In this document: piece after piece, positions 7,594 to 61,919 of the stretch | Numbering within the stretch: the first letter of the stretch is position 1 | Layout: every line of letters starts with the position of its first letter | From: Gammaproteobacteria bacterium | GTDB lineage: Bacteria; Pseudomonadota; Gammaproteobacteria; UBA4575 | Length of the DNA: 64,000 bases | Direction: 5' to 3' | Assembly (NCBI GenBank): GCA_045105615.1 | Contig: JBGCDS010000027.1 | Coordinates: 3,036 to 67,035, forward strand | The notes under the pieces: generated by a model | Databases searched by the model: none | What the model was told of the DNA's origin: nothing | Seen by the model: only the letters and a program-made list of their open reading frames with translations | Translations under genes and position numbers: made by a program

Positions 7594-8031
7594 CTACTCT
7601 CTTAAGACGATTGCATTAACAGAGATAGGCACGACTGCCAGAGAACTACCTAGAGAATTAGTAGCTATCACATAAGCTTCAGTTCGTGCTTGTGGGGTGG
7701 TCGGCACTCCGCCAATTTCACATGTACGTCCATCTGACGACACAGACACCAATACGCCTTTAGGCAATCGAAACGATTCACACTTGATCACTTGATGACC
7801 TCCCATATTCTGAATGCGAATTTTTGGAATAGGAGAATAATGCGTAAAAATCAATTCCTCGGAATCACTTAACTGAGTGATTCCGGCCAATTTTCTAACT
7901 GGGCTCGGATCATTCAATTGAACGCACTTTAGCCGCACAAACGTCATTAGATAATCCTGAATCAACCCTGAGCTAAGGAGAAAATTAGCGGCTATCAGTA
8001 AGCAACAGATTAAAAGTAACACTCTCACCAT
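7594..8031 (-). CDS. hypothetical exported protein with Ig-like (He_PIG-type) C-terminal segment
   Basis: N-terminal hydrophobic leader; GGVPTTPQ...YVIATNSLG motif. Confidence 0.45.
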   Translation of the reverse strand: MVRVLLLICCLLIAANFLLSSGLIQDYLMTFVRLKCVQLNDPSPVRKLAGITQLSDSEELIFTHYSPIPKIRIQNMGGHQVIKCESFRLPKGVLVSVSSDGRTCEIGGVPTTPQARTEAYVIATNSLGSSLAVVPISVNAIVLRE

Positions 8032-20973: not shown

Positions 20974-22083
20974 ATGCTCCCTAACGTCATCACCACCATT
21001 GCCGATTTAGAATCATTTGTAGAACAGATCTCCTCTGCTCCCTGGCTGGCAATGGACACAGAGTTCATGCGTGAATCTACTTATTACCCAATCCTGTGTT
21101 TAATCCAGATTGCAACCGATGATGTCAGCGCATGTATCGATGTACTTACCTTGGATCATATTGACCCATTACTGGAGCTATTGCGACAAAACTCTCAATT
21201 GAAAATTTTTCACTCCTGCCGTCAAGACATGGAAGTATTGTATGCCGAATATCAGCTAATCCCAAAACCGCTATTTGACACTCAAGTCGCAGCTAGCATT
21301 CTAGGCCTCAATGAACAGATCAGCTATGCTGAATTAGTCGCACAAAAATCATCTATTCATTTAGCCAAAACCGAAAGCCGTACTGATTGGAAAAAGCGGC
21401 CACTAAGCGCTGCCCAGATTGACTACGCTTTAGATGATGTAATTCATCTAGGCCCCCTGTGTAAGAAGTTGGAATCTGATTTAGAGACAGAAAATAGAAC
21501 GCCTTGGTTGGCAGAAGAGTGTGAAAAGTTATTACTCTCATCTAACTATTTTGTTTCTCCAGAAGATGCTTGGAAGCAAGTCAAAGGAATAGGCAAACTG
21601 AATGCAAAACAATTTTACTATGTGCGTAAAATTGCTCACTGGCGTGAGCAGTCTGCCCAAACCAAAAACTTACCTAGACGATGGATATTACCTGACCCTG
21701 CCATTCTAGAAACCTGCCAATTAAAAGATTTTAGCGGTGAATCTATCTCGCAATGCCTTAAACAGCATGCACCTAAATCGATGCGCCACTCAAACAATAT
21801 TATTCAAATTTTACAGCAAACCATTCCTGCTGAAATCGTCAATGATCTTCAAGAACCGGCTGACAATAGACTTAGCAAAGAACAGAAAACACTAATTAAA
21901 AAACTTATGGAATTTTCTCGCAACCGCGCTGAACAAATCAATACATCTGCTTCTTTGCTAGCAAATAGAAAGTCATTGGTAGATTTAGTGCTAGGGAAAC
22001 AAAGCAGAGTTGGGTCCGGCTGGAGAAAATCTCAAATTGGCGATGAGCTGGCAACCATTGTTGAATCAGAACCCCAAGAATAA
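20974..22083 (+). CDS. rnd: ribonuclease D
   Basis: 369 aa; 3'-5' exonuclease domain (WLAMDTEF) plus HRDC-like C-terminus. Confidence 0.85.
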   Translation: MLPNVITTIADLESFVEQISSAPWLAMDTEFMRESTYYPILCLIQIATDDVSACIDVLTLDHIDPLLELLRQNSQLKIFHSCRQDMEVLYAEYQLIPKPLFDTQVAASILGLNEQISYAELVAQKSSIHLAKTESRTDWKKRPLSAAQIDYALDDVIHLGPLCKKLESDLETENRTPWLAEECEKLLLSSNYFVSPEDAWKQVKGIGKLNAKQFYYVRKIAHWREQSAQTKNLPRRWILPDPAILETCQLKDFSGESISQCLKQHAPKSMRHSNNIIQILQQTIPAEIVNDLQEPADNRLSKEQKTLIKKLMEFSRNRAEQINTSASLLANRKSLVDLVLGKQSRVGSGWRKSQIGDELATIVESEPQE

Positions 22084-22423: not shown

Positions 22424-22428
22424 AAAAT

Positions 22429-22462
22429 AAACGCACTTAGCAGAATACTGCTAAGTGCGTTT
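22429..22462. terminator. bidirectional rho-independent terminator (15-bp perfect stem, 4-nt loop) between convergent ibaG and cytochrome c genes
   Basis: aaacgcacttagcag-aata-ctgctaagtgcgttt flanked by A and T runs. Confidence 0.75.
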
Positions 22463-22466
22463 AGCT

Positions 22467-22799
22467 TTACTTACTAGGAAGTTCTAGGGTTTCTAGACCA
22501 TCTAAGCTAGCATAATATGCGGCTAAATCTTTCATATCCTGCTCATTAAGTGCAGCAACAATACCGCTCATAATCGGATTATTTCGCGATCCAGACTTAT
22601 AGCTTTCTAATGCGACGTATAGGTAATCTTCGTATTGACCAGCAATATTCGGGAATGTTGCCACTGCACTCATTCCAGATTCTCCATGACAAGCTACGCA
22701 TGTCTGTGACTTCTCTTTTCCTGCCGCAACGTTACCACCGGCAATGGCACTGGCTGCAAAGACAACTTGTACCAGTAAAATAAGCATCAAGCGTTTCAT
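22467..22799 (-). CDS. monohaem class I cytochrome c (c5/c553-like), exported
   Basis: signal peptide; CVACHG haem-binding motif. Confidence 0.8.
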   Translation of the reverse strand: MKRLMLILLVQVVFAASAIAGGNVAAGKEKSQTCVACHGESGMSAVATFPNIAGQYEDYLYVALESYKSGSRNNPIMSGIVAALNEQDMKDLAAYYASLDGLETLELPSK

Positions 22800-36457: not shown

Positions 36458-36829
36458 TCATTTATTGATCTTACACACCTGATTTTTCTTATATCGCCAG
36501 TCAGCAAAACGCTTATAGAAAAAATCCAATAAAGCAATCAGCTTGAATTTAGTCACGACAAATCCAAGCACTCTATAATACTTCAGAGAATTCCATATCA
36601 ATGCAAAAGCAGCTGCACCTGTAACGATAGTGCCATCACTATGTACCGCATGAATCCGCCTAAGTAATGTTTCTTTACTGAACCCATAATGTTGAATATC
36701 ATCCCATGACGAATTAATACCCAGCCAATGAATATCATGTAATGGCTTTAATTTTTTATAATGCTCAATTTCGGCATCACAAAGTGGGCATGCATCATCA
36801 TAAAATACAATATGCGGGTTTGTACTCAA
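36458..36829 (-). CDS. thiol-disulfide oxidoreductase DCC family (DUF393)
   Basis: VFYDDACPLCDAEIEHY motif. Confidence 0.7.
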   Translation of the reverse strand: MSTNPHIVFYDDACPLCDAEIEHYKKLKPLHDIHWLGINSSWDDIQHYGFSKETLLRRIHAVHSDGTIVTGAAAFALIWNSLKYYRVLGFVVTKFKLIALLDFFYKRFADWRYKKNQVCKINK

Positions 36830-36846: not shown

Positions 36847-37857
36847 TTATAAATCTAGTGTTACTCGAAGACCAGACTTATTTTCTACAAGTTGAATATT
36901 TGCGTCATGCAATTCCAATACAGCGCTGACCAAACTCAAACCTAAACCAGCACCCTGCTGTGACTGTTGACTTGGGTCGCGATAAAATCGCTCAAATACT
37001 TTGTGCCTAGATTCTAGAGGTATTCCAGGGCCGTTGTCATCAATATGTACTTTACACCCCCGCTTATAGGGCTCCATTTTAACATTGATCACACCACCCT
37101 CAGAGGTGAATTTAATCGCGTTATCCAGCAAATTAGCGATCACTTGAAACATTAGATCTCGATCACCAATATAAGATGCCGGCTGCGTTTTTATCGTTAT
37201 GCACTGGCTTTTTTCTTGTGCAAGCGGGTCATATAACCCTACTGCATCTTCAATCAGTTTTTGCAAATCAAACTCAACAAACTTAAGGGGTTGACGGCCC
37301 GACTCAATACTAGAAAGACTAAGCAGCGAATTGAACGTCTTAAGCAAACCATCGACTTCAGTCACAAGCTGCTCATCCTGCTGAGCGTCCAATTTATTTC
37401 TCAATCGCGCCAAGGGTGTACGCAAATCATGCGCGATAGTATCAGTTATATGTTGCACACCAGACATTAGCTTTTCTATCTTGTCTAACATACTGTTCAA
37501 CACCTGGGACAAAAAACTCAAATCATCCCAGCGAGAATCTACCTTCAAGCGCTTTGTTAAATCGCCCGTCGACATAATTTCATCCGCAGTATCTGCGATA
37601 CGGTTAATTCGCGTCACAACAAAAATACTAATAAGGTAGCCAGCAATCACTAACATTAACAACGGCACGACACCAGCAATAATTAATACCACTACAACAT
37701 TTTGAGAATCATCACTAGTAGACTGCAAATAGAAATACAACGCAGCACTCAAACAAGCCGTTGAAAACAATAACAACAACAAGAATAAATTAGCCACCTT
37801 AAAACTCGAGCTCTTCTTATACTCTCTAGCAATCTTCAATGATGTATCCTGAACCAC
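36847..37857 (-). CDS. sensor histidine kinase (two TM, HisKA HDLRTPLARL, HATPase_c)
   Basis: 336 aa; H-box and G-boxes (DNGPGIP); overlaps RR gene. Confidence 0.85.
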   Translation of the reverse strand: MVQDTSLKIAREYKKSSSFKVANLFLLLLLFSTACLSAALYFYLQSTSDDSQNVVVVLIIAGVVPLLMLVIAGYLISIFVVTRINRIADTADEIMSTGDLTKRLKVDSRWDDLSFLSQVLNSMLDKIEKLMSGVQHITDTIAHDLRTPLARLRNKLDAQQDEQLVTEVDGLLKTFNSLLSLSSIESGRQPLKFVEFDLQKLIEDAVGLYDPLAQEKSQCITIKTQPASYIGDRDLMFQVIANLLDNAIKFTSEGGVINVKMEPYKRGCKVHIDDNGPGIPLESRHKVFERFYRDPSQQSQQGAGLGLSLVSAVLELHDANIQLVENKSGLRVTLDL

Positions 37858-38503
37858 GCTTGGTTTTAATTAAGTACTGAGGATCATCCTGGTCGATTTT
37901 ATGCCTAAGCCTGCTAACATGAACGTCAATCACATTGGTTTGCGGATCAAAATGGTAATCCCAAACATACTCAAGCAACATAGTGCGAGTAACAACCTGT
38001 CCTTTATTACGCAGCAAATACTCTAGCAATCTAAACTCGGTAGCCTGCAAAACAATTTCTTTATTACCGCGATTTGCTTCCCTCTTAAGCAAATCTAATT
38101 CTACATCACGCGCATGCAGCACTGTTTCAGATTCAGCTGCATGCTGGTTTCTTCGATACAACGCTTCTATTCGTGCAGTTAACTCAGAAAATGCAAATGG
38201 CTTCACGAGATAATCATCACCGCCTGACCGCAGACCTTTTACCCGGTCATCCACCTCTCCTAACGCACTAAAAATAAGTATTGGTGTTAAGTTGCCAGCA
38301 CCACGCAGTGTTTTTGTAATAGTTAGACCGTCCACCTCAGGCAACATACGATCAATCAGCATTACATCGTATTGCTCAGTTGTTGCCAGAAACAGACCAT
38401 CTCTACCATTCACAGTCACGTCAACGACGTGGCCATCCTCTGTCAAACCTTTCTGCAGGTAATCCAGTAATTCCTGATCATCTTCGATACATAATATTCG
38501 CAT
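37826..38503 (-). CDS. OmpR/PhoB-family response regulator
   Basis: REC domain (ILCIEDD...DRMLP) + winged-helix (VSRLRHKID...IKTKRGSGY). Confidence 0.9.
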   Translation of the reverse strand: MRILCIEDDQELLDYLQKGLTEDGHVVDVTVNGRDGLFLATTEQYDVMLIDRMLPEVDGLTITKTLRGAGNLTPILIFSALGEVDDRVKGLRSGGDDYLVKPFAFSELTARIEALYRRNQHAAESETVLHARDVELDLLKREANRGNKEIVLQATEFRLLEYLLRNKGQVVTRTMLLEYVWDYHFDPQTNVIDVHVSRLRHKIDQDDPQYLIKTKRGSGYIIEDC

Positions 38504-38582
38504 AACAGTGAGGCAGTTTATAGCAAGCCAGAATTTTATTCGATATCACCAATAATAGTGAATATGCCCATAGCTCAACATA

Positions 38583-38614
38583 AACCCAACATTAAATATA
38601 TTTAATGTTGGGTT
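38583..38614. promoter_or_regulatory. 32-bp perfect palindrome between response-regulator gene and cfa-like cluster
   Basis: aacccaacattaaatatatttaatgttgggtt is its own reverse complement. Confidence 0.6.
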
Positions 38615-38674
38615 CACTCAATATTTATCCTGAGCGTGAGACGATGTGCCAACATCACAGCAACAGAGTTGGAG

Positions 38675-39229
38675 ATGAATAAATTTGATTTATTGTTTTT
38701 GGTATTCATGCTTTGCTTTGCTAACAACAGCATTGCCGAGAAAGAAATAGTGGGTGAGTTACCCGAAATAGTTTCCAATCAATGGAACGTAACTGAAAAA
38801 AAAGGCGATACACGATTCAAAAAATTAGGCCTGCATATTTACGATGCTTCTTTATGGTCACTTGCTGATAGCAAAACACTAGAGCATTCTACTAACGCAA
38901 CTGCTTTATCGATAATTTATGCACGAAACATTAAAGCGCATCGATTATTGTCCAGTACACATAAAGAATGGAAACATCTTGGATTTGCACATCAGCACCC
39001 ATTAGATGCATGGTTAGATGCACTAGAAAATATATGGCCCGATATCAAGGATGGTGATTATCTAGTTTTTGTCAACTACCACGATGGTAACAACGCATTT
39101 TATTCTGGCACCAAGCTTCTTGGCAGCATCAATGATTCGACATTTGGCTCGGCCTTCTTGGATATTTGGCTAAACAAAAACGCCCGATATCAAAAACATA
39201 GAAAGGAGTTAATCGGTGAGAAAATATGA
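38675..39229 (+). CDS. chalcone-isomerase-like family exported protein
   Basis: start at MNKFDLL (signal peptide); family commonly found in cfa/DUF1365 clusters; ORF-track start 38636 judged extension. Confidence 0.5.
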   Translation: MNKFDLLFLVFMLCFANNSIAEKEIVGELPEIVSNQWNVTEKKGDTRFKKLGLHIYDASLWSLADSKTLEHSTNATALSIIYARNIKAHRLLSSTHKEWKHLGFAHQHPLDAWLDALENIWPDIKDGDYLVFVNYHDGNNAFYSGTKLLGSINDSTFGSAFLDIWLNKNARYQKHRKELIGEKI

Positions 39230-39767
39230 TTTTCGACTAATATTATTAGCCATTGCTCTCAGCGTCTCGTTATCCGCCTGTAGCACCACACTTGACGAAT
39301 ACGAGAACACAGCACCAGAATTCGATTTGCAGCAGTTCTTCACTGGAGAACTAAAAGGCTGGGGTCTAGTTAAAGACTGGCAAGGCAAGGTCACTCAACG
39401 TTTTAGTGTAGCGCTTGATGGAAAGTGGGAGCAAAACAAAGGCACTCTTTATGAATTATTCACCTATTCAGACGGCAGATCCCAAGAGCGCATCTGGCAA
39501 TTAGAAAAACTCAAAGATGGTAAAAGCCTCGGCCGAGCTAATGATGTGGTTGGAGACGCCAATGGAAAACAAGAGGGTTTTGCTTTCAACTGGTCCTACC
39601 AATTATTAGTAGATACTAAAAATGGCCCCATAGCAGTGAATTTAAACGACTGGATTTATCAAATAGACAGTCATGCGCTTGTTAGTGAAGCTCAGATTAA
39701 AAAATTCGGCTTCAATGTTGGTGAAGTACTCGTTTTCATCGTCAAACAGGATCAAAAAAATGGATGA
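39216..39767 (+). CDS. DUF3833-family lipoprotein
   Basis: lipobox LSAC; FFTGELKGWGLVKDWQGKV... Confidence 0.6.
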   Translation: MRKYDFRLILLAIALSVSLSACSTTLDEYENTAPEFDLQQFFTGELKGWGLVKDWQGKVTQRFSVALDGKWEQNKGTLYELFTYSDGRSQERIWQLEKLKDGKSLGRANDVVGDANGKQEGFAFNWSYQLLVDTKNGPIAVNLNDWIYQIDSHALVSEAQIKKFGFNVGEVLVFIVKQDQKNG

Positions 39768-40185
39768 CAAACTCATCACAAGCTTCGTAGATGACATGAA
39801 CTCACTATCAAAAAACAATATCAGTGAAGTATTAGAAAAAGTCTATACCGACGAAATTGAATTCATTGATCCCGTCAAAGGCATCCATGGCTTGGACGAC
39901 CTTACTAGCTACTTTGCAGGCTTATACAAAAGCGTAGATCATTGCCACTTTACTATTAACAACTACATTCCCCACGGAGATCTACACTCTATAGAATGGA
40001 AAATGAAACTCAAGCATCAAAAGTTAGCAAAAAATAAAGAAATCACTTTAGATGGTGCATCATTTATTCGCTTTAAAGACAACAAAGTATGCTATCACCG
40101 CGATTACTATGACCTTGGCGCATTGATATACGAAAGAATTCCTATTTTAGGCTCAGCAGTAAGGATGGTGCGTAATGCTTTCTAA
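39760..40185 (+). CDS. SnoaL/NTF2-like fold protein
   Basis: start at MDDKL overlapping upstream stop; ~140 aa NTF2-like. Confidence 0.5.
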   Translation: MDDKLITSFVDDMNSLSKNNISEVLEKVYTDEIEFIDPVKGIHGLDDLTSYFAGLYKSVDHCHFTINNYIPHGDLHSIEWKMKLKHQKLAKNKEITLDGASFIRFKDNKVCYHRDYYDLGALIYERIPILGSAVRMVRNAF

Positions 40186-40960
40186 CAAAGTCATTAATTA
40201 TTTCGATGACAAGGTTATTTGGATTACTGGCGCCTCATCAGGCATAGGTCGCGCATTAACGATCAGCTTATCCAGCATAGACTGCGAGATTTATATCTCA
40301 TCACGTTCACAGGCTAAGTTACAGGAAACAAAATCATTGTGTGAAAACCAAAATAACATTCACATCTTAGAAGGAGATCTAACTGAAAAGGCATGCAATC
40401 AATCAATCAGCGAAAGCATTAAAAACAAAAATGGTCATTTAGATATTGCAATTTTAAACGCAGGCACATGTGAATATGTTGATATAGACCAATTTGATAG
40501 CGCACTTTTCCAGCGCGTCATTAATAGCAACTACATGAGCATTATCTATGGCATAGAAGCTACTCTACCACTCCTCAAACAGTCTAATAATGCACATCTA
40601 GTCGGCATGAGTAGTACAGCCGCTTATTTAGGCCTACCTCGCTCAGAAGCATATGGTGCAAGTAAAGCAGCAATTCTTAATTTATTCAGGGCGTTAAAAG
40701 TTAGCATGATTCCATACAATATTGAGGTATCTACAATATGCCCTGGGTTCGTTAAAACAGAACTTACAGATAAAAATAACTTCCCGATGCCATGCTTAAT
40801 CGGCTCGAATCAAGCTTCTGAAGAAATATTAAAAGGCATTGCTAGCAAAAAGCATGAGATCCACTTCCCCAAGAGATTTAGCTACGCATTAAAGGCTATC
40901 TCATTTTTACCTGATTTCATTCAATTCAGACTATTAAGTAAAACAATACAGAAATCATGA
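40175..40960 (+). CDS. short-chain dehydrogenase/reductase (SDR)
   Basis: TGASSGIGRA Rossmann motif; YGASKAA catalytic motif. Confidence 0.8.
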   Translation: MLSNKVINYFDDKVIWITGASSGIGRALTISLSSIDCEIYISSRSQAKLQETKSLCENQNNIHILEGDLTEKACNQSISESIKNKNGHLDIAILNAGTCEYVDIDQFDSALFQRVINSNYMSIIYGIEATLPLLKQSNNAHLVGMSSTAAYLGLPRSEAYGASKAAILNLFRALKVSMIPYNIEVSTICPGFVKTELTDKNNFPMPCLIGSNQASEEILKGIASKKHEIHFPKRFSYALKAISFLPDFIQFRLLSKTIQKS

Positions 40961-42243
40961 AAATTGCCATTATAGGTTCAGGCATCTCAGGCCTAACCAT
41001 TGCACATCATTTGCATCATGACCATGATATTCATGTGTTTGAAAAAAATAGTTATGTCGGCGGCCACTCGAATACTATCGATGTTAACGAAGGTGATACT
41101 AACGTTGCAATTGATACTGGGTTCATTGTTCTAAACGACTGGACTTACCCCAACTTCGAAGCATTACTAAAATCATTAAAAGTCGAAGTGGAAAACTCTG
41201 AAATGAGTTTTTCGGCTAAATGCGAACTCAGTAAATTCGAGTGGTGCGGGAAAGGTATTCAAGGCCTCGCCTTAAACAGAAACAACTGGTATCGCATTAA
41301 GTCATACCAAATATTATTTGATTTTTTACGCTTCAATAAATTAGCTAAAAATCTCATCACTAAAAATAACTCCCAACTAACATTAGGAGAGTTTCTAAAA
41401 CAAAACAATTTCACTAAAGCATTCACAAAATATTACATATTACCTATGGGAGCGGCTATATGGTCTTCATCAACTGAAGATATATACGACTATCCAGCTC
41501 ATAGCTTTTTAGCATTCTTCAACAACCATGGACTACTTAATATAAAAATCAGACCCCAATGGAAAACCATAGTTGGCGGCTCTAGACAGTATGTAAACAA
41601 ACTGATCCAACCATTCTCAGGAAATATATCGCTAGATTCTACTATCACCCATATTGAACGTAATAATGACAAAGTCGTTATCCACCATCAGAGCAAATCT
41701 CCCGACATGTTTGATCATGTCATTTTTGCCTGTCATAGCGATCAAGCATTAGCGTTACTTATACAACCATCTCATGATGAGCAAAAAACTTTAGAGAAAA
41801 TCAGGTATCAATACAACGAAGCTGTATTACATACAGATGAAGACTTAATGCCAAGCAACAAAAAATCCTGGTGCGCCTGGAATTATTTACTACCAAAACA
41901 AGAAGACACATGCGCCAAAGTCACTTATTACATGAATCGTTTACAGCCGCTACAGACAAAAAATAATTATTTCGTCTCACTGAACTTAACTGACCGAATT
42001 AATCCAGAAAAAATTATTAGAACAATTAGCTATCAACACCCTGTATTTGACAAGCCCGCAATAGATGCGCAGAAAAATCTAAAGCTCCTTAATGGAAAGC
42101 ATAATACTTGGTTTTGTGGTGCTTACTGGAGAAATGGCTTTCACGAAGATGGTGTCTGGAGCGCACTAACAACCCTAAAACAATTCAAACACGAGGTTAG
42201 CAACGCTGATGATAAACAGCTGCATTTACAAAGGGCAAGTTAG
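40957..42243 (+). CDS. FAD-dependent amine-oxidase-like oxidoreductase (UfaD-like candidate)
   Basis: IAIIGSGISGL dinucleotide motif; 428 aa. Confidence 0.7.
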   Translation: MKIAIIGSGISGLTIAHHLHHDHDIHVFEKNSYVGGHSNTIDVNEGDTNVAIDTGFIVLNDWTYPNFEALLKSLKVEVENSEMSFSAKCELSKFEWCGKGIQGLALNRNNWYRIKSYQILFDFLRFNKLAKNLITKNNSQLTLGEFLKQNNFTKAFTKYYILPMGAAIWSSSTEDIYDYPAHSFLAFFNNHGLLNIKIRPQWKTIVGGSRQYVNKLIQPFSGNISLDSTITHIERNNDKVVIHHQSKSPDMFDHVIFACHSDQALALLIQPSHDEQKTLEKIRYQYNEAVLHTDEDLMPSNKKSWCAWNYLLPKQEDTCAKVTYYMNRLQPLQTKNNYFVSLNLTDRINPEKIIRTISYQHPVFDKPAIDAQKNLKLLNGKHNTWFCGAYWRNGFHEDGVWSALTTLKQFKHEVSNADDKQLHLQRAS

Positions 42244-42958
42244 TCATCGCCGATTTGAGCCTCGCGCGCACAGTTTTACATATTCACTATTTATGATGTA
42301 TGTAGACTTGGAAGAACTAGATACACTGACCAGCAAACATTCCGCCCTGTCTCACAACAAACCTGGGCTAGCAGCATTTTATAGAAAAGACCACCACGGC
42401 AATGATTCAGAATCATTATCGAATTCAATCCGTTCTCTCGTAAAAGAAAGGACCGGGGACTCTATAGAGGGCTCTATTCGCCTACTCACACACTTTCGCT
42501 ACTTCGGTCATGTCTTCAATCCGATCAGCTTATATTTTTGTTACGACAAACAAAATAAAAATGTGACCCATGTTGTTGCCGAAGTCACGAACACACCTTG
42601 GAAGAAGCAACACTGCTATGTTTTATCAGGGGAAACAAGTGGAAATACCTTCATCACACCCAAACAGCGCAAAGTATTTCATGTGTCGCCATTCATGAAC
42701 ATGGATATGGATTATCGATGGCACATCCAAATACCCAACGAGACCCTTAATGTAAGAATAGAAAACATTAAAGATCAATCAAAGTTATTTGATGCATCAA
42801 TCAACCTTAAGAAACTTGAATTAACTTCCAGCAATATAACTAAGACTCTATTGAATTTCCCCTTGATGACTATAAAGGTTGTTAGCGCAATCCACTTTCA
42901 AGCACTCAAGCTATGGCTAAAAGGGATTAAATACGTACCCCATCCAAAAAATAATTAG
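42209..42958 (+). CDS. DUF1365-family protein (UfaO-like candidate)
   Basis: N-terminus ..IYKGQVSHRRF..; position between FAD oxidase and cfa-like gene. Confidence 0.65.
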   Translation: MINSCIYKGQVSHRRFEPRAHSFTYSLFMMYVDLEELDTLTSKHSALSHNKPGLAAFYRKDHHGNDSESLSNSIRSLVKERTGDSIEGSIRLLTHFRYFGHVFNPISLYFCYDKQNKNVTHVVAEVTNTPWKKQHCYVLSGETSGNTFITPKQRKVFHVSPFMNMDMDYRWHIQIPNETLNVRIENIKDQSKLFDASINLKKLELTSSNITKTLLNFPLMTIKVVSAIHFQALKLWLKGIKYVPHPKNN

Positions 42959-42966
42959 GTAGAACA

Positions 42967-44235
42967 ATGTCTATTATTCCAAATCAAAATAAAAACATAC
43001 AACAAAACTATCAAGGCAACTGGCTTGATAGTATCGCCATGTCTATATTGCTAAAAAAACTAGACAACATTAAAACTGGTCTATTGCAAATCTATGTCGA
43101 CAACATGCTTTACGAATTCGGAAACACCAATAGCAAAAGTGATATTCACGCCGTGATTCGCGTGCAGGACATGAGGGCATTTAGAGCAATCATCACTGGT
43201 GGAGAACCCGCTGCTGGAAAGACCTATATTGACGGCTGGTGGACATCAGATGATTTAATCGAAGTGTTACGTATATTCACTGTAAACAGACATGCATTGT
43301 TTGGTTTCAAGCATGGCGTTGCATCTTTAGCAAAAACTATAAGCCGATTCTCAAATAATATTCTTAGGAACACGTTAAAAGGTTCAAAACGAAACATCAA
43401 AGCCCATTACGATATAGGAAATGACCTATACGAGCTATTCCTAGATGAAAACATGATGTATTCATCTGCTTATTTTCGCAACGAAAACGAAAGCCTGACA
43501 AGCGCATCCGAATACAAACTTAAACTCATCTGCGAGAAATTAGATTTACAAGCTTCAGACAGAGTGATAGAAATTGGCGCCGGCTGGGGAGGCTTCGCTA
43601 TCTATGCAGCCCAAAATTATGGTTGCCATGTAACAACAACGACCATCTCTGACCAACAGTTTGATCATGCAACCGCCAGGGTAAATACATTAAAGTTAAC
43701 GAAACGCATTAACGTTATCAAACAAGACTATCGTGCCCTTTCTGGAAGCTATGACAAATTAGTCTCTATTGAAATGATTGAATCCGTAGGCCATCAATAT
43801 ATGGATAGTTATTTCAGCATTTGCAACAGGTTGCTTAAACCATCAGGCGCAATGCTAATCCAATCTATTACCATGTCCGATTACCTATTTAAAGATTACA
43901 TCAACTCAACAGATTTCATTAGAAAATATGTATTTCCAGGAGGCTGCTTAACTAGCACAAACTCTATGATGTCATCAGTAGCCAAGCATACAGATCTAAC
44001 CCTCTATCATAGCGAAAGCTTTGCATCTAGCTACGCCAGAACCCTCAAAATGTGGCATCAAAACTTTCATAAAAACAAGGACAAGGTCATTGAACTTGGC
44101 TACTCAACAAATTTTATAAGATTGTGGGAATATTATATAAAGTACTGTCAAGCTGGATTCGAGAATAGAATCATTGACGTTCATCACCTGGTGTTAAAAA
44201 AGCCTGACAATCGCTTCAATCACCTTTCAGCCTAA
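42967..44235 (+). CDS. cfa: cyclopropane-fatty-acyl-phospholipid synthase family SAM-dependent methyltransferase (UfaM-like candidate)
   Basis: VIEIGAGWGG SAM motif; 422 aa CFA-synthase architecture. Confidence 0.8.
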   Translation: MSIIPNQNKNIQQNYQGNWLDSIAMSILLKKLDNIKTGLLQIYVDNMLYEFGNTNSKSDIHAVIRVQDMRAFRAIITGGEPAAGKTYIDGWWTSDDLIEVLRIFTVNRHALFGFKHGVASLAKTISRFSNNILRNTLKGSKRNIKAHYDIGNDLYELFLDENMMYSSAYFRNENESLTSASEYKLKLICEKLDLQASDRVIEIGAGWGGFAIYAAQNYGCHVTTTTISDQQFDHATARVNTLKLTKRINVIKQDYRALSGSYDKLVSIEMIESVGHQYMDSYFSICNRLLKPSGAMLIQSITMSDYLFKDYINSTDFIRKYVFPGGCLTSTNSMMSSVAKHTDLTLYHSESFASSYARTLKMWHQNFHKNKDKVIELGYSTNFIRLWEYYIKYCQAGFENRIIDVHHLVLKKPDNRFNHLSA

Positions 44236-44239
44236 CAAA

Positions 44240-44803
44240 ATGAAGCTATCCCCTCATACAGCTTTTTTAATATTTAACTTTCTTGGCTTACAAATCACCT
44301 GGGCCGCATGCGCTTATGGTGCAACAAACTCAATGCCAATTTTAGGCGTGGTAGTTGGACTAATCTATATCGCCTTGCACCTGTTATTAACAAAAGTACG
44401 CAATCAAGATTTATTAATATTATTGACTATTAGCATTATCGGGATAAGCGTAGATCATATAAACACATACTTGGGCTTAATGGCATTCACACCTAACAAC
44501 ACAACACACTCAGTCATTCCATTATGGCTTATAATCTTATGGATGGTATTTTCATTAATGCTGCCACACAGTTTGAACTGGTTAGGAAAAAATACGGCAC
44601 TTTCATTTCTTATCGGCGGCCTTGGCGGCGCAAGTAGTTATTGGCTAGGACACAAACTTAGCGCTATAAGCATATCAGAGCCATTATTATTAAACATTTC
44701 AATTCTATTTATTGAATGGGCAGTTATATGCACTGTTGCCTATCGAATACTAGCATTCATAAGAGCTAAAATATCCAACAAGCAGTTAATAACTAACCCC
44801 TAA
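44240..44803 (+). CDS. DUF2878-family membrane protein
   Basis: 187 aa, 5-6 TM; conserved partner of cfa/DUF1365 clusters. Confidence 0.55.
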
Positions 44804-45415
44804 GCCACCTAGTCCACAATAACCTCGTGGATTCTTTGCTAAGTATTGCTGATGAAAATCCTCTGCATAATAAAACTCTGGCGCTGATATGACTTCTGTC
44901 GTTATGCGCCCATGCCCAGCTTTTGTTAATTTGGCAGCATATAGTTGCTTTGATTTTTCTACCACCTCTAACTGCGATTGATTGTACACATAGACCCCAG
45001 AACGATATTGAGTTCCCTTATCATTACCTTGGCGCATCCCTTGAGTAGGGTTGTGTGATTCCCAAAAGATACTCAGCAGCTCTTCAAGCGTAATTTTACC
45101 AGGATCGAACATTACTAATACCACTTCATTGTGTCCGGTTAAACCTGTACACACTTCTTCATAACTAGGGTTGAGCGTTATACCTGCGGCATAGCCTACC
45201 GCCGTCGAGTAGACACCTTCTATCTGCCAGAATTTTCTTTCCGCCCCCCAAAAGCATCCCAGCCCAAACATGATTTTCTCTATATGGTCGGGGAATGGTG
45301 GCTTGATAGGATTCTCTTTCACAAAATGTAATGGAGAAACCAGCATAGCTGTATCACGTCCAGGCAGAGCTTCCTGCTGTGTTGGCATTCTTTCTTTAAT
45401 ACTTAACATACTCAC
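44786..45415 (-). CDS. msrA: peptide methionine sulfoxide reductase MsrA
   Basis: GLGCFWGAE active site. Confidence 0.9.
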
Positions 45416-49340: not shown

Positions 49341-50213
49341 TTACAAACTTACTTGCAGCATATATTGATGCAAAAATTTACCAAACTCTTTAATACGAGC
49401 AACTTGCCTTAAATCAGGGTGCATTAAAATCCATAACCCGTCTTTAAATTTAGGCTCAACATCAAACAACCTAACTAAATTTTGATTAAAATAATTGGTA
49501 GGTAGCACAGCCACTCCCAAATCTTGATCACATAAAGAAGATATTGTTTTCACATCACTAGCAAAACAACTAAAGTTATCCATTGAATACTGGCGCATTA
49601 ACCATTTGTAAGCTTCTATCCTTAACAGCGATTCATCAGCGCCTATTAAATCGTAATCACTTAGATCTTTCGTTTTAATAGGCGCACCATTTTTCTTCAC
49701 GTATGCCTTACTAGCATATGCTGACCAAGTAAGATCCGTGACTTTACGGCCTAATAGATAATCTGGAGGATTATTGGTTGTACGAATAGCAATGTCAGCG
49801 TCTCGCCGTGATAGATCATACAACGCACTACTGACAATAACGTTTACTGAAATACGCGGATGATCTATGCGGAATTTAGCCACGCAAGGAACCAGTAAAT
49901 GCTCAGCAATAGATAGTGGCGAAGTGACACGAATCTCCCCAGACAGCTCATAGTCTTTTCCCGCTACAGCACGCTCCAATGAATGTATTGAGTTCTCCGC
50001 TAACTGCGCATACTCAAGTACTGTATGACCTATCTGTGTTAACTCATAACCTTCAATCCGACGCTCAAACAACCGAGCTCCAAGCTTATCTTCAATTGCA
50101 TTGATTCGACGAAATACAGTTGAGTGATTCACTTTCAGACCTTTTGAAGCACCCATAAGCGTGCCTGATTTAGCCACTGCCAAAAAATATGGTAGATCAT
50201 TCCAGTCAATCAT
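49341..50213 (-). CDS. LysR-family transcriptional regulator
   Basis: start at MIDWNDLPYFLAVAKSGTL (HTH); ~290 aa. Confidence 0.85.
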   Translation of the reverse strand: MIDWNDLPYFLAVAKSGTLMGASKGLKVNHSTVFRRINAIEDKLGARLFERRIEGYELTQIGHTVLEYAQLAENSIHSLERAVAGKDYELSGEIRVTSPLSIAEHLLVPCVAKFRIDHPRISVNVIVSSALYDLSRRDADIAIRTTNNPPDYLLGRKVTDLTWSAYASKAYVKKNGAPIKTKDLSDYDLIGADESLLRIEAYKWLMRQYSMDNFSCFASDVKTISSLCDQDLGVAVLPTNYFNQNLVRLFDVEPKFKDGLWILMHPDLRQVARIKEFGKFLHQYMLQVSL

Positions 50214-50226
50214 GTCTTTGCACTTT

Positions 50227-50243
50227 TGCAAATATATATTGCA
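50227..50243. promoter_or_regulatory. palindromic LysR-type box TGCAA-N7-TTGCA in divergent promoter
   Basis: tgcaaatatatattgca seen directly between lysR and SDR gene. Confidence 0.45.
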
Positions 50244-50337
50244 CATATTGTCGATTAACTTGCCTATATGCAAGTGATAATATTTCACTCAATCACAAAC
50301 AAAACTAATTTTTAACCTTCTTTTCGAGGAAACAGAT

Positions 50338-59453: not shown

Positions 59454-59936
59454 ATGCCTACTTTTGTATATATGACTCGTTGCGATGGTTGTGGACATTG
59501 CGTTGATATCTGCCCTTCAGACATCATGCATATCGACACTACTACCCGACGTGCTTACAACATTGAGCCAAACATGTGCTGGGAGTGTTACTCCTGCGTT
59601 AAGGCTTGCCCACATAATGCTATCGACGTTCGTGGTTATGCTGACTTTGCTCCACTAGGTCACTCAGTACGAGTAATTCGCGATGAAGAGAAAGGTGTTA
59701 TTGCCTGGCGTATTAAATTCCGCAACGGCAAGAAAGACATGAATCTGTTAGCTCCGATTACAACTAAACCTTGGGGTACAGCTATTCCGAATCTATCGGA
59801 TGAATCTGCTCCTAGTAAGGATATGACTGATAGCCAGCTACTTTTCAATGAGCCGAAATACATCCGTTTGGATGAAGGTGGTTTACATACGCTTGAGTCT
59901 AACGGCTTGAAGATGAAAGAAGGAGTTTACTACTAA
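59454..59936 (+). CDS. aprB: adenylylsulfate (APS) reductase beta subunit
   Basis: two [4Fe-4S] motifs CDGCGHCVDICP / CWECYSCVKACP; 160 aa; followed by aprA. Confidence 0.85.
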   Translation: MPTFVYMTRCDGCGHCVDICPSDIMHIDTTTRRAYNIEPNMCWECYSCVKACPHNAIDVRGYADFAPLGHSVRVIRDEEKGVIAWRIKFRNGKKDMNLLAPITTKPWGTAIPNLSDESAPSKDMTDSQLLFNEPKYIRLDEGGLHTLESNGLKMKEGVYY

Positions 59937-61816
59937 TGGGTTATAAAACTGTTGTAGAAGATGACATTGATGTACTGATCACTGGTGCTGGCATGGCCGG
60001 TACCGGTGCTGCATTCGAGTCTAGATATTGGGGCAAGGACAAGAAAATTGTCATTGCTGAGAAAGCAAACATGGATCGCTCAGGTGCAGTTGCACAGGGT
60101 CTATATGCTATCAACACATATATGGGAACTCGTTTCGGTGAAAACAATCCTGAAGATCACGTACGTTACGCGCGTATGGATTTGATGGGTATGGTACGTG
60201 AAGATTTGCTATTTGATATGGCTCGCCATGTTGATTCAGCAGTGCACCAATTCGAAGAATGGGGTTTGCCATTAATGCGTGATCCTAAGACCGGTGCTTA
60301 TCAGCGCGAAGGTCGTTGGCAGATCATGATTCACGGTGAGTCATACAAGCCTATCGTGGCTGAAGCTGCTAAAAAATCAGCAGACAAAGTATTCAACCGT
60401 ATCTGTGTTACTCATTTGTTAATGGATGATGCAAAAGAAAATCGTGTTGCTGGTGCTGTTGGCTTCAACGTACGTACGGGTGATTATCACGTATTCAAAT
60501 CTAAAGCTGTTGTTTGTGCTGCCGGTGGCGCGTCAAATATCTTCAAGCCTCGTTCAGTGGGTGAAGGTGCAGGTCGTGTTTGGTATGCACCATGGTCATC
60601 AGGTTCAGCTTACGGCTTGCTAATTGAAGCAGGCGCGAAAATGACACAGATGGAAAACCGTATTGTGTTAGCGCGCTTCAAAGACGGCTACGGTCCAGTA
60701 GGTGCTTACTTCTTACACCTTAAGACTTACACACAGAATGGTGTCGGCGAAGAGTATGAGTCAAAGTGGTTCCCTGAATTATCGAAAATGGTTGGTAAAG
60801 AATACCTCGATACAGAAGGTCAGCATTTATCTCATAAACCAATTCCAACTTGCTTACGTAACCATGCATTCATCAACGAAGTAAATGCAGGTCGCGGACC
60901 GATTCACATGGTTACCATGGAAGCGTTCCAAGATCCTCATCTTGAAGAAATTGGTTGGCATAACTTCTTAGGTATGACAGTTGGTCAAGCCGTCCTTTGG
61001 GCAGCAACTGACGTCGATCCTAAATATGAGAACCCTGAACTAACAACTTCAGAGCCATATGTAATGGGTTCACATGCCACCGGTTGTGGTGCATGGGTCT
61101 CAGGTCCAGAAGATATCGCACCAGATGAGTACTTCTGGGGTTACAACCGTATGACAACAGTTGAAGGTCTATTCGGCGCAGGTGATGCTGCTGGTGGTAC
61201 ACCACACGCATTCTCTTCTGGCTCATTCACAGAAGGTCGTTTAGCTGCTAAGGCTGCATGCAAATACATCGATGATGGAAAAGCAGAAGGCATTAGAGTT
61301 TCTCAAGAGCAAATTGATAGACGCGGTGAGCAAATCTTCAAGCCGATGGAACATTATAAAATCTATCGCAATGAGATTACTGCGGGTTCAGTCAATCCTA
61401 ATTACATCAACCCACGTCAGGGTCTTGATCGCTTGCAAAAGCTAATGGACGAGTACGCTGGTGGTGTAACTGTTAGCTATATGACCAACGACAAGCTACT
61501 TAACATCGGTCTCAAGAAGATGAAGATGCTTGAGGAAGACTTAGAGAAGATTGCTGCTGAAGATATCCATGAGTTACTTCGCGCATGGGAATTAAAGCAT
61601 CGTCAACTCTCTTCTGAAGCTGTGTTACAACACACTTTATTCCGCAAGGAAACTCGTTGGCCTGGTTACTACTACCGTGGTGACGCGATGAAACTAGATG
61701 ACCAAAATTGGCATGTATTAACTGTTTCACGTCGTGATCCTAAAACTGGTGAGTACACCATGGAAAAAGCTCCTTGCTATCACTTAGTTAGTGATGCAGA
61801 GGAAAAAGTTGCGTAA
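59936..61816 (+). CDS. aprA: adenylylsulfate (APS) reductase alpha subunit (FAD)
   Basis: 626 aa; LITGAGMAGTGAA FAD motif; fumarate-reductase-like fold; start overlaps aprB stop. Confidence 0.9.
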   Translation: MGYKTVVEDDIDVLITGAGMAGTGAAFESRYWGKDKKIVIAEKANMDRSGAVAQGLYAINTYMGTRFGENNPEDHVRYARMDLMGMVREDLLFDMARHVDSAVHQFEEWGLPLMRDPKTGAYQREGRWQIMIHGESYKPIVAEAAKKSADKVFNRICVTHLLMDDAKENRVAGAVGFNVRTGDYHVFKSKAVVCAAGGASNIFKPRSVGEGAGRVWYAPWSSGSAYGLLIEAGAKMTQMENRIVLARFKDGYGPVGAYFLHLKTYTQNGVGEEYESKWFPELSKMVGKEYLDTEGQHLSHKPIPTCLRNHAFINEVNAGRGPIHMVTMEAFQDPHLEEIGWHNFLGMTVGQAVLWAATDVDPKYENPELTTSEPYVMGSHATGCGAWVSGPEDIAPDEYFWGYNRMTTVEGLFGAGDAAGGTPHAFSSGSFTEGRLAAKAACKYIDDGKAEGIRVSQEQIDRRGEQIFKPMEHYKIYRNEITAGSVNPNYINPRQGLDRLQKLMDEYAGGVTVSYMTNDKLLNIGLKKMKMLEEDLEKIAAEDIHELLRAWELKHRQLSSEAVLQHTLFRKETRWPGYYYRGDAMKLDDQNWHVLTVSRRDPKTGEYTMEKAPCYHLVSDAEEKVA

Positions 61817-61870: not shown

Positions 61871-61919
61871 TTTAACTAAAAAAGGCCAACAGCAAAACTG
61901 TTGGCCTTTTTTAGTTAAA
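61871..61919. terminator. bidirectional rho-independent terminator, 22-bp perfect arms, GC core GGCCAACAG, flanking A6/T6
   Basis: tttaactaaaaaaggccaacag-caaaa-ctgttggccttttttagttaaa. Confidence 0.8.

Follow-up and report, generated by a model that had tools for sequence, protein, structure and literature searches.

What does a long, perfect palindrome do between a two-component system and a cluster of lipid-modification genes? The question is raised by a 32-bp element, AACCCAACATTAAATATATTTAATGTTGGGTT, in a 64-kb stretch of DNA (hereafter the window, meaning the whole stretch analysed), which a first-pass annotation had picked out as self-complementary, too long to be expected by chance, and a candidate bidirectional control element linking the kinase and regulator to the cluster. 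We consider it likely that the adjacent response regulator binds the palindrome as a box of the CusR/CopR/HprR type, and that the element serves to switch on both the regulator's own operon and the lipid cluster (Table 1).

Table 1. Features of the palindrome locus, in window coordinates.
Feature	Position	Strand	Remarks
Perfect palindrome, 32 bp, halves AACCCAACATTAAATA and TATTTAATGTTGGGTT	38583..38614	none	Centre between 38598 and 38599
Conserved 22-bp box, halves AACATTAAATA and TATTTAATGTT	38588..38609	none	Proposed response-regulator dimer site
Predicted -10 region of the cluster promoter: TG, one base, GACGAT (38640-38645)	38637..38645	+	Prediction from sequence
Predicted -10 hexamer TATTAT of the regulator-kinase-DCC1 operon	38552..38557	-	Prediction from sequence; 42 bp from box centre
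OmpR-family response regulator, 225 aa, receiver Asp51	37826..38503	-	Pfam Response_reg and Trans_reg_C
Histidine kinase, 330-336 aa, start codon uncertain	36847..37857	-	HAMP, HisKA and HATPase after two membrane helices
DCC1-like thiol-disulfide oxidoreductase gene	36458..36829	-	18 bp downstream of kinase gene
Target operon, 8 genes	38675..44803	+	Pfam domains; proposed target

The sequence is as the annotation had quoted it: the element equals its own reverse complement, with 16-nt arms that are 100% complementary and meet with zero spacer, and it ends at 32 bp, where the next outward bases (a at 38582, c at 38615) are unpaired. In 30 first-order Markov copies of the window, no zero-spacer palindrome had a half-length above 11, as against 16 here, and 100 shuffles gave no match, in keeping with the view that it is not due to chance. 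The distances also held, with 79 bp from the regulator start codon (38503, minus strand) to the palindrome and 60 bp from the palindrome to the ATG at 38675; the cluster, put at nine genes by the annotation, counts eight on the same strand (38675-44803). The same palindrome was found in two independent samples (SRR29999184 and SRR29999185, Logan assemblies), whose contigs break inside it, as expected of a k=31 graph. In a relative with a 96% identical regulator (L098), the element, AACGCAAC...GTTGCGTT, is likewise a perfect 32-bp palindrome, which differs by two mirrored changes at position 13 (C:G to G:C) and lies between diverged flanks.

Short palindromic repeats are common in the intergenic regions of gammaproteobacteria, and on this general ground the element might be a dispersed REP- or MITE-like repeat copy, or what remains of the end of a mobile element, and play no regulatory part locally. 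We regard this as extremely improbable: a single copy is present in the window even with three mismatches allowed, the element occupies the same position in all syntenic relatives, and 650 kb of related loci hold no further copy outside promoter positions. Scanning 185,579 representative genomes (pattern CCCAACATTAAN{2,10}TTAATGTTGGG; the source species, with the exact arms, lies outside the collection) returned only five hairpins, all in unrelated taxa of other phyla; A-runs and T-runs border two of these, as in terminators, and none lies close to a homologue of the regulator. The search for further copies that the annotation had proposed thus gives no sign of a REP-like element, either in the window or in this collection.

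Across relatives, it is the centre of the palindrome that is conserved. In 13 lineages, 11 bp on each side of the centre are kept, with flanks ~50-60% identical or unalignable, and the resulting 22-bp box matches the pattern CATTAMAWNNWTKTAATG in the window. Counting from the centre, positions 3 and 5-8 do not vary in either half, nor do the ATTA.A half-sites, and A predominates at positions 10-11. The arrangement of regulator, kinase and cluster around the box is kept in every ortholog fetched (regulator identity 75-96%). In the more distant L015 and L019, the cluster comes after the kinase gene in the same direction, and the box lies 55-59 bp upstream of the first cluster gene and is absent upstream of the regulator gene. 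The box thus moves with the cluster promoter, which together with the conserved synteny favours the control element suggested by the annotation.

Related loci carry one box copy per cluster promoter (L015 has a second, weaker box inside the cluster), and 650 kb of loci contain 18 matches to the box pattern, vs. ~1.5 in shuffles, with 1 site in the window and 1 per 20-kb orthologous locus. Where the cluster is missing, in relatives at 60-68% identity, a box of the CATTACGTTTTTGTAATG type precedes the regulator gene by 68-92 bp, often with a DegP-like protease gene transcribed divergently. Among metagenomic regulator relatives at 57-65% identity, most do not adjoin the lipid cluster, so that the link between regulator and cluster is specific to a subgroup rather than to the whole regulator family.

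Could the dyad symmetry itself be under selection, with the palindrome acting mainly as a nucleic-acid structure, i.e., a supercoiling-sensitive cruciform or a hairpin in a leader or antisense RNA? A perfect 32-bp palindrome with an AT-rich centre would lend itself to this (-13 kcal/mol and z = -8.4 for the folded single strand), the L098 element has stayed perfect through its mirrored substitution despite diverged flanks, and position 13 is symmetric in 6 of the 13 lineages with four different bases. However, the half-sites of four distant loci (L013, L014, L015, L019) are unequal and oriented, with ATTAAA facing the cluster and ATTACA on the opposite side, so that pairing is broken and the consensus bases are kept, and beyond the closest strains conservation is limited to the 11 bp on each side of the centre. 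The element also has no T-run, terminator call or Rfam family match, and the predicted transcription starts lie outside it and point away, in which case the palindrome would not be transcribed. A mainly structural role is, on this evidence, very unlikely.

Protein recognition does leave unexplained the perfect symmetry of positions 12-16 and the mirrored C:G to G:C change in L098. It is conceivable, if unlikely, that hairpin or cruciform formation is additionally selected for in the box, or helps to maintain it, either as a supercoiling-sensitive switch on a symmetric two-promoter activator site or as a palindrome that corrects itself through hairpin-templated repair. The 16-bp perfect arms in two strains, the AT-rich centre, and arms that end just upstream of both -35 regions may be cited for such an added role. 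Two other candidates were rejected, namely an intrinsic terminator (no call in 38300-38900, with both flanking genes pointing away from the element) and an RNA family (Rfam, searched permissively in the region and at gathering scores in the whole window, gave just a meaningless microRNA match, E = 0.36).

Boxes of this kind are known from other two-component systems. In E. coli, the CusR/HprR box CATTACAAAATTGTAATG lies between hiuH and hprR (PMC9302797), and CusR binds AAAATGACAAnnTTGTCATTTT between cusRS and cusCFBA (PMC11195947). In Pseudomonas, CusR, CopR and CzcR bind ATTACATnnATGTAAT, a perfect palindrome that separates the divergent cusRS and pcoA2 operons, both of which are activated by CusR. 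The regulons of these systems comprise very few sites (PMC11195947). A single mirrored position distinguishes the window core, ATTAAATatATTTAAT, from the Pseudomonas paraeruginosa site, and in both cases the site is a perfect palindrome between divergent regulator-kinase and target operons. Inside the 22-bp box, the 18-bp CATTAAAT-AT-ATTTAATG (38590-38607) is in register with the E. coli HprR/CusR box CATTACAA-AA-TTGTAATG, with which it shares an 8+2+8 dyad and 13 of 18 positions. The length conserved here is that of the E. coli CusR box (22 bp), and the layout is that of E. coli hprRS and hiuH-msrPQ, where the box lies in a 132-bp region between the divergent regulator-kinase and target operons. 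The half-site in the window departs from the HprR box by A for C at position 4 and T for A at position 2, and the palindrome is perfect to 32 bp, unlike the HprR/CusR box.

The regulator scores best against the NCBIfam family TIGR01387 (247.1 bits; cut-off 279.2), followed by CusR (229.9; cut-off 420) and HprR (205.4; cut-off 353). Its identity to the E. coli proteins is 48% for CusR and 42% for HprR. By these scores it is a sister group of the heavy-metal family TIGR01387 rather than a demonstrated member, as it falls below the curated cut-off. Its recognition-helix region, DPQTNVIDVHVSRLRHKID, resembles those of CusR (DSDTNAIDVAVKRLRGKID) and HprR, and the motif T-N-x-(I/V)-D-V-x-(V/I)-x-R-L-R-x-K-(I/V)-D is common to the three proteins. 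As its best family matches are CusR and HprR, a group that binds palindromes between divergent operons, the regulator is the candidate binder of the box.

Most OmpR/PhoB-family sites are direct repeats, classically ~10-11 bp apart and upstream of or overlapping the -35 element, whereas the site in the window, next to a regulator of the same winged-helix fold family, is an inverted repeat. In view of the usual direct repeats, the annotation had suggested that another dimeric regulator may be involved, and perfect dyad symmetry is typical of homodimeric helix-turn-helix regulators. The palindrome would then be the operator of a factor encoded elsewhere (e.g., of the MerR/LitR, TetR or LysR type), with the two-component system using another site; a LysR-type gene is present at 49341-50288, and homologous lipid clusters elsewhere are under other regulators, e.g., sigmaE-ChrR in Rhodobacter (PMC7380195).

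We nonetheless judge such an operator to be quite unlikely, given that the closest known relatives of the regulator (the CusR and HprR group) themselves bind perfect palindromes, which the core matches in sequence, layout and position (PMC9302797, PMC11195947). The same kind of box stands beside homologous regulators with other neighbours, such as DegP-like genes, and no other regulator gene is conserved beside the locus across layouts. Nor does the intergenic region offer a convincing direct-repeat site of the OmpR/PhoB kind, as 38400-38800 contains just two weak two-copy repeats (71-75% identity, 64 and 74 bp apart).

Binding by the adjacent regulator would also be consistent with where the box lies relative to predicted promoters. 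With a -10-like hexamer defined as nAnnnT with at least 3 of 6 matches (background rate 0.094 per position), 14 of 15 target-side promoters, among them E. coli cusC and hiuH, have one that begins exactly 42 bp from the box centre, the sequences compared being phylogenetically related and the positional statistics thus not independent. TATTAT, TATGAT or TATCAT is found at position 41-42 in 11 of 11 divergent-layout loci (11 of 13 with the two E. coli promoters added), and the hexamer on the regulator side is an invariant block of the alignment (A4). These promoter elements are weak consensus matches, the cluster-side GACGAT of the window fitting at just three of six positions. An alternative -10 element 25-30 bp from the box centre, which would have the box overlap the -35, was dropped, since the hexamer at position 42 is far more consistent on both sides and in E. 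coli.

On the target side, the likely start of the first gene, which encodes a Chalcone_3-like product, is the ATG at 38675, given that the protein then has a normal signal peptide (MNKFDLLFLVFMLCFANNSIA) and that this start matches the ortholog gene calls. The distance from box centre to target ATG is 76.5 bp here vs. 80.5 bp for cusC and 78.5 bp for hiuH. Transcription of the cluster would start near 38652, with a leader of ~23 nt, and that of the regulator operon near 38545, which would put the box near -53.5 of two predicted divergent promoters. The figure of -53.5 comes from sequence geometry, a literature search for a mapped cusC transcription start having returned no positional data.

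In the reading that we prefer, the kinase would phosphorylate the regulator, a dimer of which would bind the 22-bp dyad. From its place ~53.5 bp upstream of two divergent starts, the dimer would activate the 8-gene lipid operon on the plus strand, and probably also its own regulator-kinase-DCC1 operon on the minus strand. The palindrome, the conservation of its core, the movement of this core with the cluster promoter, its co-occurrence with the regulator family and its agreement with characterised boxes are observed directly, and from them we infer that the regulator binds the box and activates rather than represses. The DCC1-like gene is probably the third gene of the regulator operon, an order kept in orthologs.

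The kinase differs from those of the known systems. The two membrane helices of the kinase are joined by a loop of ~9 residues, with no periplasmic sensor domain between them, and the protein aligns to just positions 164-453 of the heavy-metal kinase model, whereas HprS has a periplasmic domain. The CusR systems of Pseudomonas and E. coli have kinases that sense periplasmic metal and targets in metal resistance, whereas no metal-handling genes adjoin the locus described here. It is tempting to speculate that so short an outer loop suggests a membrane-borne cue, e.g., oxidative lipid damage.

The proposed target encodes, by Pfam domains, Chalcone_3, DUF3833, SnoaL, SDR, amine oxidase (UfaD-type), DUF1365 (UfaO-type), CMAS/cfa-like methyltransferase and DUF2878 proteins. 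The Amino_oxidase, DUF1365 (4e-82) and CMAS (3e-82) genes are adjacent, like the genes for a UfaD-type FAD amine-oxidase-like desaturase, a UfaO-type DUF1365 protein and a SAM methyltransferase by which a furan fatty acid operon is recognised (PMC7380195), and the domain content points to a putative furan-fatty-acid-like lipid cluster. An msrA gene lies at the end of the cluster; the HprR system targets oxidative-damage repair, and its target genes are different from those found here. In Rhodobacter sphaeroides, the furan fatty acid operon RSP1091-1087 (ufaD, ufaO) is under sigmaE-ChrR (PMC7380195). It has the same core domains (UfaD-type amine oxidase, UfaO-type DUF1365, CMAS, SDR), with orthology judged from Pfam domains only. 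There, an ECF sigma factor and its anti-sigma factor answer singlet oxygen, whereas at this locus the place of the regulator is taken by a two-component system with a palindromic box.

The palindrome itself is most likely a member of an ordinary class of elements, a CusR/HprR-like regulator box between divergent operons, placed in a new setting. A literature search for a two-component system tied to a DUF1365/cfa-like cluster found nothing relevant, and the papers searched do not appear to describe the proposed control of the lipid cluster by the box. Where other bacteria use sigmaE-ChrR, a two-component system stands beside a cluster for furan-fatty-acid-type membrane-lipid modification in uncultured marine gammaproteobacteria and, with other layouts, elsewhere. 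If the model holds, it would offer a 22-bp site of defined sequence, a pair of predicted promoters and a candidate sensor of membrane stress, all directly testable, and the signal that induces the cluster would be open to study with a simple reporter.

The 32-bp palindrome between the response regulator gene and the lipid-modification cluster (see table) is a putative box of the adjacent CusR/CopR/HprR-like regulator, placed between divergent operons. As the first-pass annotation had reported, it is its own reverse complement: a repeat finder run on the window returned two 16-nt arms, 100% complementary with zero spacer, and the bases next outward are unpaired, which sets the length at exactly 32 bp. 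The earlier claim that this exceeds chance in 64 kb also holds, as no zero-spacer palindrome exceeded a half-length of 11 in any of 30 first-order Markov copies of the window (vs. 16 here). The same sequence is present in independent read sets (Logan assemblies, two runs). In Logan assemblies (k = 31) of three runs, and also in a JGI contig, the sequence breaks within the palindrome, on both sides; since a perfect palindrome of at least 31 bp breaks a k = 31 de Bruijn graph, many public assemblies have this locus split.

Position and features of the palindrome locus and of the related loci (window coordinates unless a locus is named)
Feature	Position	Strand	Remarks
Palindrome aacccaacattaaatatatttaatgttgggtt	38583-38614		read directly from the window sequence
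Conserved unit, about 22 bp	38588-38609		
Contig ends within palindrome	L001 1-30, L003 1-30, starts of L099 and L100		window equivalent 38583-38614
Response regulator, OmpR-family	37826-38503	-	divergent from cluster, palindrome in between
Histidine kinase	36847-37857	-	
DCC1-like gene	36458-36829	-	
Cluster, n = 8 genes	38675-44803	+	one strand: Chalcone_3-like, DUF3833, SnoaL-like, SDR, amine-oxidase-like, DUF1365, CMAS/cfa-like, DUF2878
msrA	44786-45415	-	
Predicted cluster -10, TG-a-GACGAT	38637-38645	+	predicted start near 38652
Predicted regulator-operon -10, TATTAT	38552-38557	-	predicted start near 38545
Inverted repeat, 22-bp arms	61871-61919		follows ORF 59936-61816
Inverted repeat, 16-bp arms	22428-22463		between convergent ORFs 20974-22083 (+) and 22467-22799 (-)
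Palindrome of L098	1390-1421		
Second box-like dyad of L015	10065-10082		
Loci of regulator relatives with protease or EipA neighbour, no lipid cluster in available DNA	L024 364-1932, L085 4350-5843, L028 2548-4002, L046 5188-5844		
Variant dyads	L045 ~2590-2610, L047 ~7685-7705		

The first cluster gene likely starts at ATG 38675, given a normal signal peptide and the agreement with ortholog gene calls. With this start, the spacings first given (80 bp on the regulator side, 60 bp on the cluster side) are correct, while the cluster counts eight genes and not nine. Redox-repair genes lie on either side of the system: msrA abuts the cluster end, where it runs convergently and overlaps the 3' end of the last cluster gene, and the kinase gene is followed, within one operon, by a DCC1-like thiol-disulfide oxidoreductase gene. 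Close orthologs keep both genes in these positions.

A dispersed repeat was rejected, as the palindrome is single-copy in the 64-kb window with up to three mismatches allowed (0 matches in 100 shuffles), and a scan of representative genomes (one per species) returned only five hairpins, from an alphaproteobacterial MAG, Alloiococcus and Bacteroidota, with different centres and no homologue of any locus gene nearby. A terminator was likewise rejected: both neighbouring genes are transcribed away from the palindrome, and the site was not called as terminator-like. No RNA family was matched in an Rfam search. Elsewhere in the window, the inverted repeat TTTAACTAAAAAAGGCCAACAG-CAAAA-CTGTTGGCCTTTTTTAGTTAAA (5-nt loop) holds an A-run and a T-run within its arms and looks like a bidirectional intrinsic terminator, and TAAACGCACTTAGCAG-AATA-CTGCTAAGTGCGTTTA (4-nt loop) is probably the shared terminator of two convergent ORFs.

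Close relatives of the regulator are numerous in marine metagenomes and gammaproteobacterial MAGs. All fetched loci at 75-96% regulator identity (L010, L011, L012, L013, L014, L016, L098, L101-L106) share the same layout, with regulator and kinase (usually plus the DCC1-like gene) divergent from the eight-gene cluster, and intergenic alignments present the palindrome as a conserved island amid diverged DNA. When mirrored positions, counted from the centre, were tabulated in 13 lineages, ATTA.A (positions 3 and 5-8) was invariant in both halves, positions 10-11 were nearly always A and positions 12-16 were variable. The conserved unit is thus about 22 bp, AACATTAAATA followed by TATTTAATGTT, and the 32-bp perfection is specific to the window's own sub-lineage.

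The box follows the cluster across gene layouts. In L015 and L019 (71% and 66% regulator identity), a reduced cluster of amine oxidase, DUF1365, CMAS and Chalcone_3 lies 3' of the kinase gene in the same orientation; here the box (CATTACAATTATTTAATG in L015) follows the kinase stop codon and precedes the first cluster gene by 55-59 bp, and is absent upstream of the regulator gene. It also follows the regulator family, as cluster-less relatives (60-68% identity) carry a same-type box (e.g., CATTACGTTTTTGTAATG) located 68-92 bp 5' of the regulator gene, in many cases with a divergent DegP/HtrA-like protease gene. In the 650 kb of loci fetched, 18 matches to CATTAMAWNNWTKTAATG were obtained at two mismatches or fewer (vs. 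~1.5 in shuffles); 13 of them lay 5' of a regulator gene (48-104 bp) or of a cluster gene (55-67 bp), and the remaining five 0.46-1.9 kb away from the regulator gene. The initial suggestion of a bidirectional control element linking the regulator/kinase pair and the cluster is supported. L015 has another box-like dyad (CCTTACAGATTTGTAATG) inside its cluster, 67 bp 5' of the CMAS gene, which points to an internal promoter under regulation in this lineage.

Among curated family models, the regulator scores best with TIGR01387 (a heavy-metal response-regulator model) at 247 bits, short of the 279-bit cut-off, with CusR at 230 bits and with HprR at 205 bits. Sequence identity is 48% with E. coli CusR and 42% with HprR, and the recognition helices of all three follow the pattern T-N-x-(I/V)-D-V-x-(V/I)-x-R-L-R-x-K. 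A separate dimeric regulator, as first proposed for the palindrome, is not needed: the CusR/HprR group is itself a documented exception to the direct-repeat sites of OmpR-type regulators (PMC9302797, PMC11195947), and gene neighbourhoods offer no support for a second protein. Known sites of the group include the common CusR/HprR box CATTACAAAATTGTAATG in the E. coli hiuH-hprR intergenic region (PMC9302797), the E. coli CusR site AAAATGACAAnnTTGTCATTTT between cusRS and cusCFBA (PMC11195947), and the perfect palindrome ATTACATnnATGTAAT that separates cusRS from the pcoA2 operon and is bound by Pseudomonas CusR, CopR and CzcR (PMC11195947). There, CusR was shown by EMSA and box mutations to activate the divergent operons on both sides; the regulons are very small (PMC11195947). 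The known boxes share their 8+2+8 layout with the window core, CATTAAAT-AT-ATTTAATG, in which 13 of 18 positions are identical to the HprR box; relative to the Pseudomonas palindrome, one mirrored position is changed (A in the window for C). The canonical half-site TTGTAAT is present in the distant orthologs L013, L014 and L015.

Promoter geometry agrees with E. coli, whose cusC and hiuH regions were read directly: box centre and target ATG are 80.5 bp apart for cusC, 78.5 bp for hiuH (132-bp intergenic region) and 76.5 bp here. Scanning -10-like hexamers by distance from the box centre (target-side form nAnnnT, at least 3/6 matches) placed the target-side hexamer start at position 42 exactly for 14 of the 15 promoters (background 0.094 per position), including TAAAGT (cusC) and TATCCT (hiuH), and the regulator-side TATTAT/TATGAT/TATCAT at 41-42 in all 11 divergent-layout loci (11/13 with the two E. 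coli promoters), although the promoters are related by descent and these statistics therefore overstate independence. A stronger argument comes from the match with E. coli and with the alternative gene layout. If the predicted hexamers are true -10 elements, the box centre would fall near -53.5 of two symmetric divergent promoters, an activator position that suits a symmetric site.

One real observation favours a structural role, as a DNA cruciform or RNA hairpin. L098 (regulator 96% identical) again has a perfect 32-bp palindrome (AACGCAACATTAAATATATTTAATGTTGCGTT, i.e., AACGCAAC...GTTGCGTT) with a mirrored C:G to G:C change relative to the window at position 13, in flanking intergenic DNA only ~50-60% identical, so that symmetry is kept and base identity lost; a single strand of the palindrome also folds at -13 kcal/mol. 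However, the half-sites of L013, L014, L015 and L019 are unequal in a consistent orientation (ATTAAA on the cluster side, ATTACA on the far side), which breaks pairing yet retains consensus bases and counts against a purely structural role, and predicted transcripts begin outside the palindrome. The outer-arm symmetry could possibly reflect hairpin-templated correction, a cruciform, or symmetric contacts made just 5' of the two -35 regions.

Unlike CusS or HprS, the kinase is without an extracellular sensor domain, which is unusual for the group: two membrane helices flank a loop of ~9 residues (QSTSDDSQN), followed by HAMP and the catalytic core, and only the cytoplasmic part aligns to the heavy-metal kinase model. 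The cytoplasmic N-terminal motif REYKKSSSFK is kept in all kinase orthologs. From these features the kinase looks like an intramembrane-sensing one; the short loop and cytoplasmic-only alignment would make CusS-style periplasmic metal sensing impossible and a membrane-borne signal more likely. In the proposed mechanism, the kinase would phosphorylate the regulator, a dimer of which would bind the 22-bp dyad and activate the lipid operon, and probably the regulator's own operon too. In its domain set (UfaD-type oxidase, UfaO-type DUF1365, methyltransferase, SDR), the target operon matches the Rhodobacter furan fatty acid operon, which is induced by singlet-oxygen stress via sigmaE-ChrR (PMC7380195). 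For the inducing cue, a membrane signal of oxidative or photo-oxidative origin is a reasonable guess only.

In 60-65% relatives with no lipid cluster in the available DNA, a DegP/HtrA-like protease gene (Trypsin_2 and two PDZ domains) is divergent from the regulator gene, or, in L046, an EipA gene (envelope integrity) lies upstream on the same strand; L024 and L085 have a strong palindromic box between the protease gene and the regulator gene, and the best dyads are weaker in L028 and L046. The wider regulator family looks like an envelope-stress system. In L045 and L047, where the cluster lies 3' of the kinase gene, the kinase-to-cluster spacer holds a variant dyad (CCTTACCAATAATTAAGG and CCTTACGAATAGTTTAGA, respectively) with CCTTAC replacing CATTAC, and the regulators have S for N in their T-N-V-I-D-V motif, a possible protein-site co-variation with too few cases to judge.

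Our literature search found no description linking this regulator family and box to a furan-fatty-acid-type cluster. Palindromic CusR/CopR/HprR-like boxes between divergent operons are already well known as a kind of element, and the novelty here is modest: such a regulator and box appear wired to a furan-fatty-acid-type lipid cluster, under a kinase that has no extracellular sensor domain.
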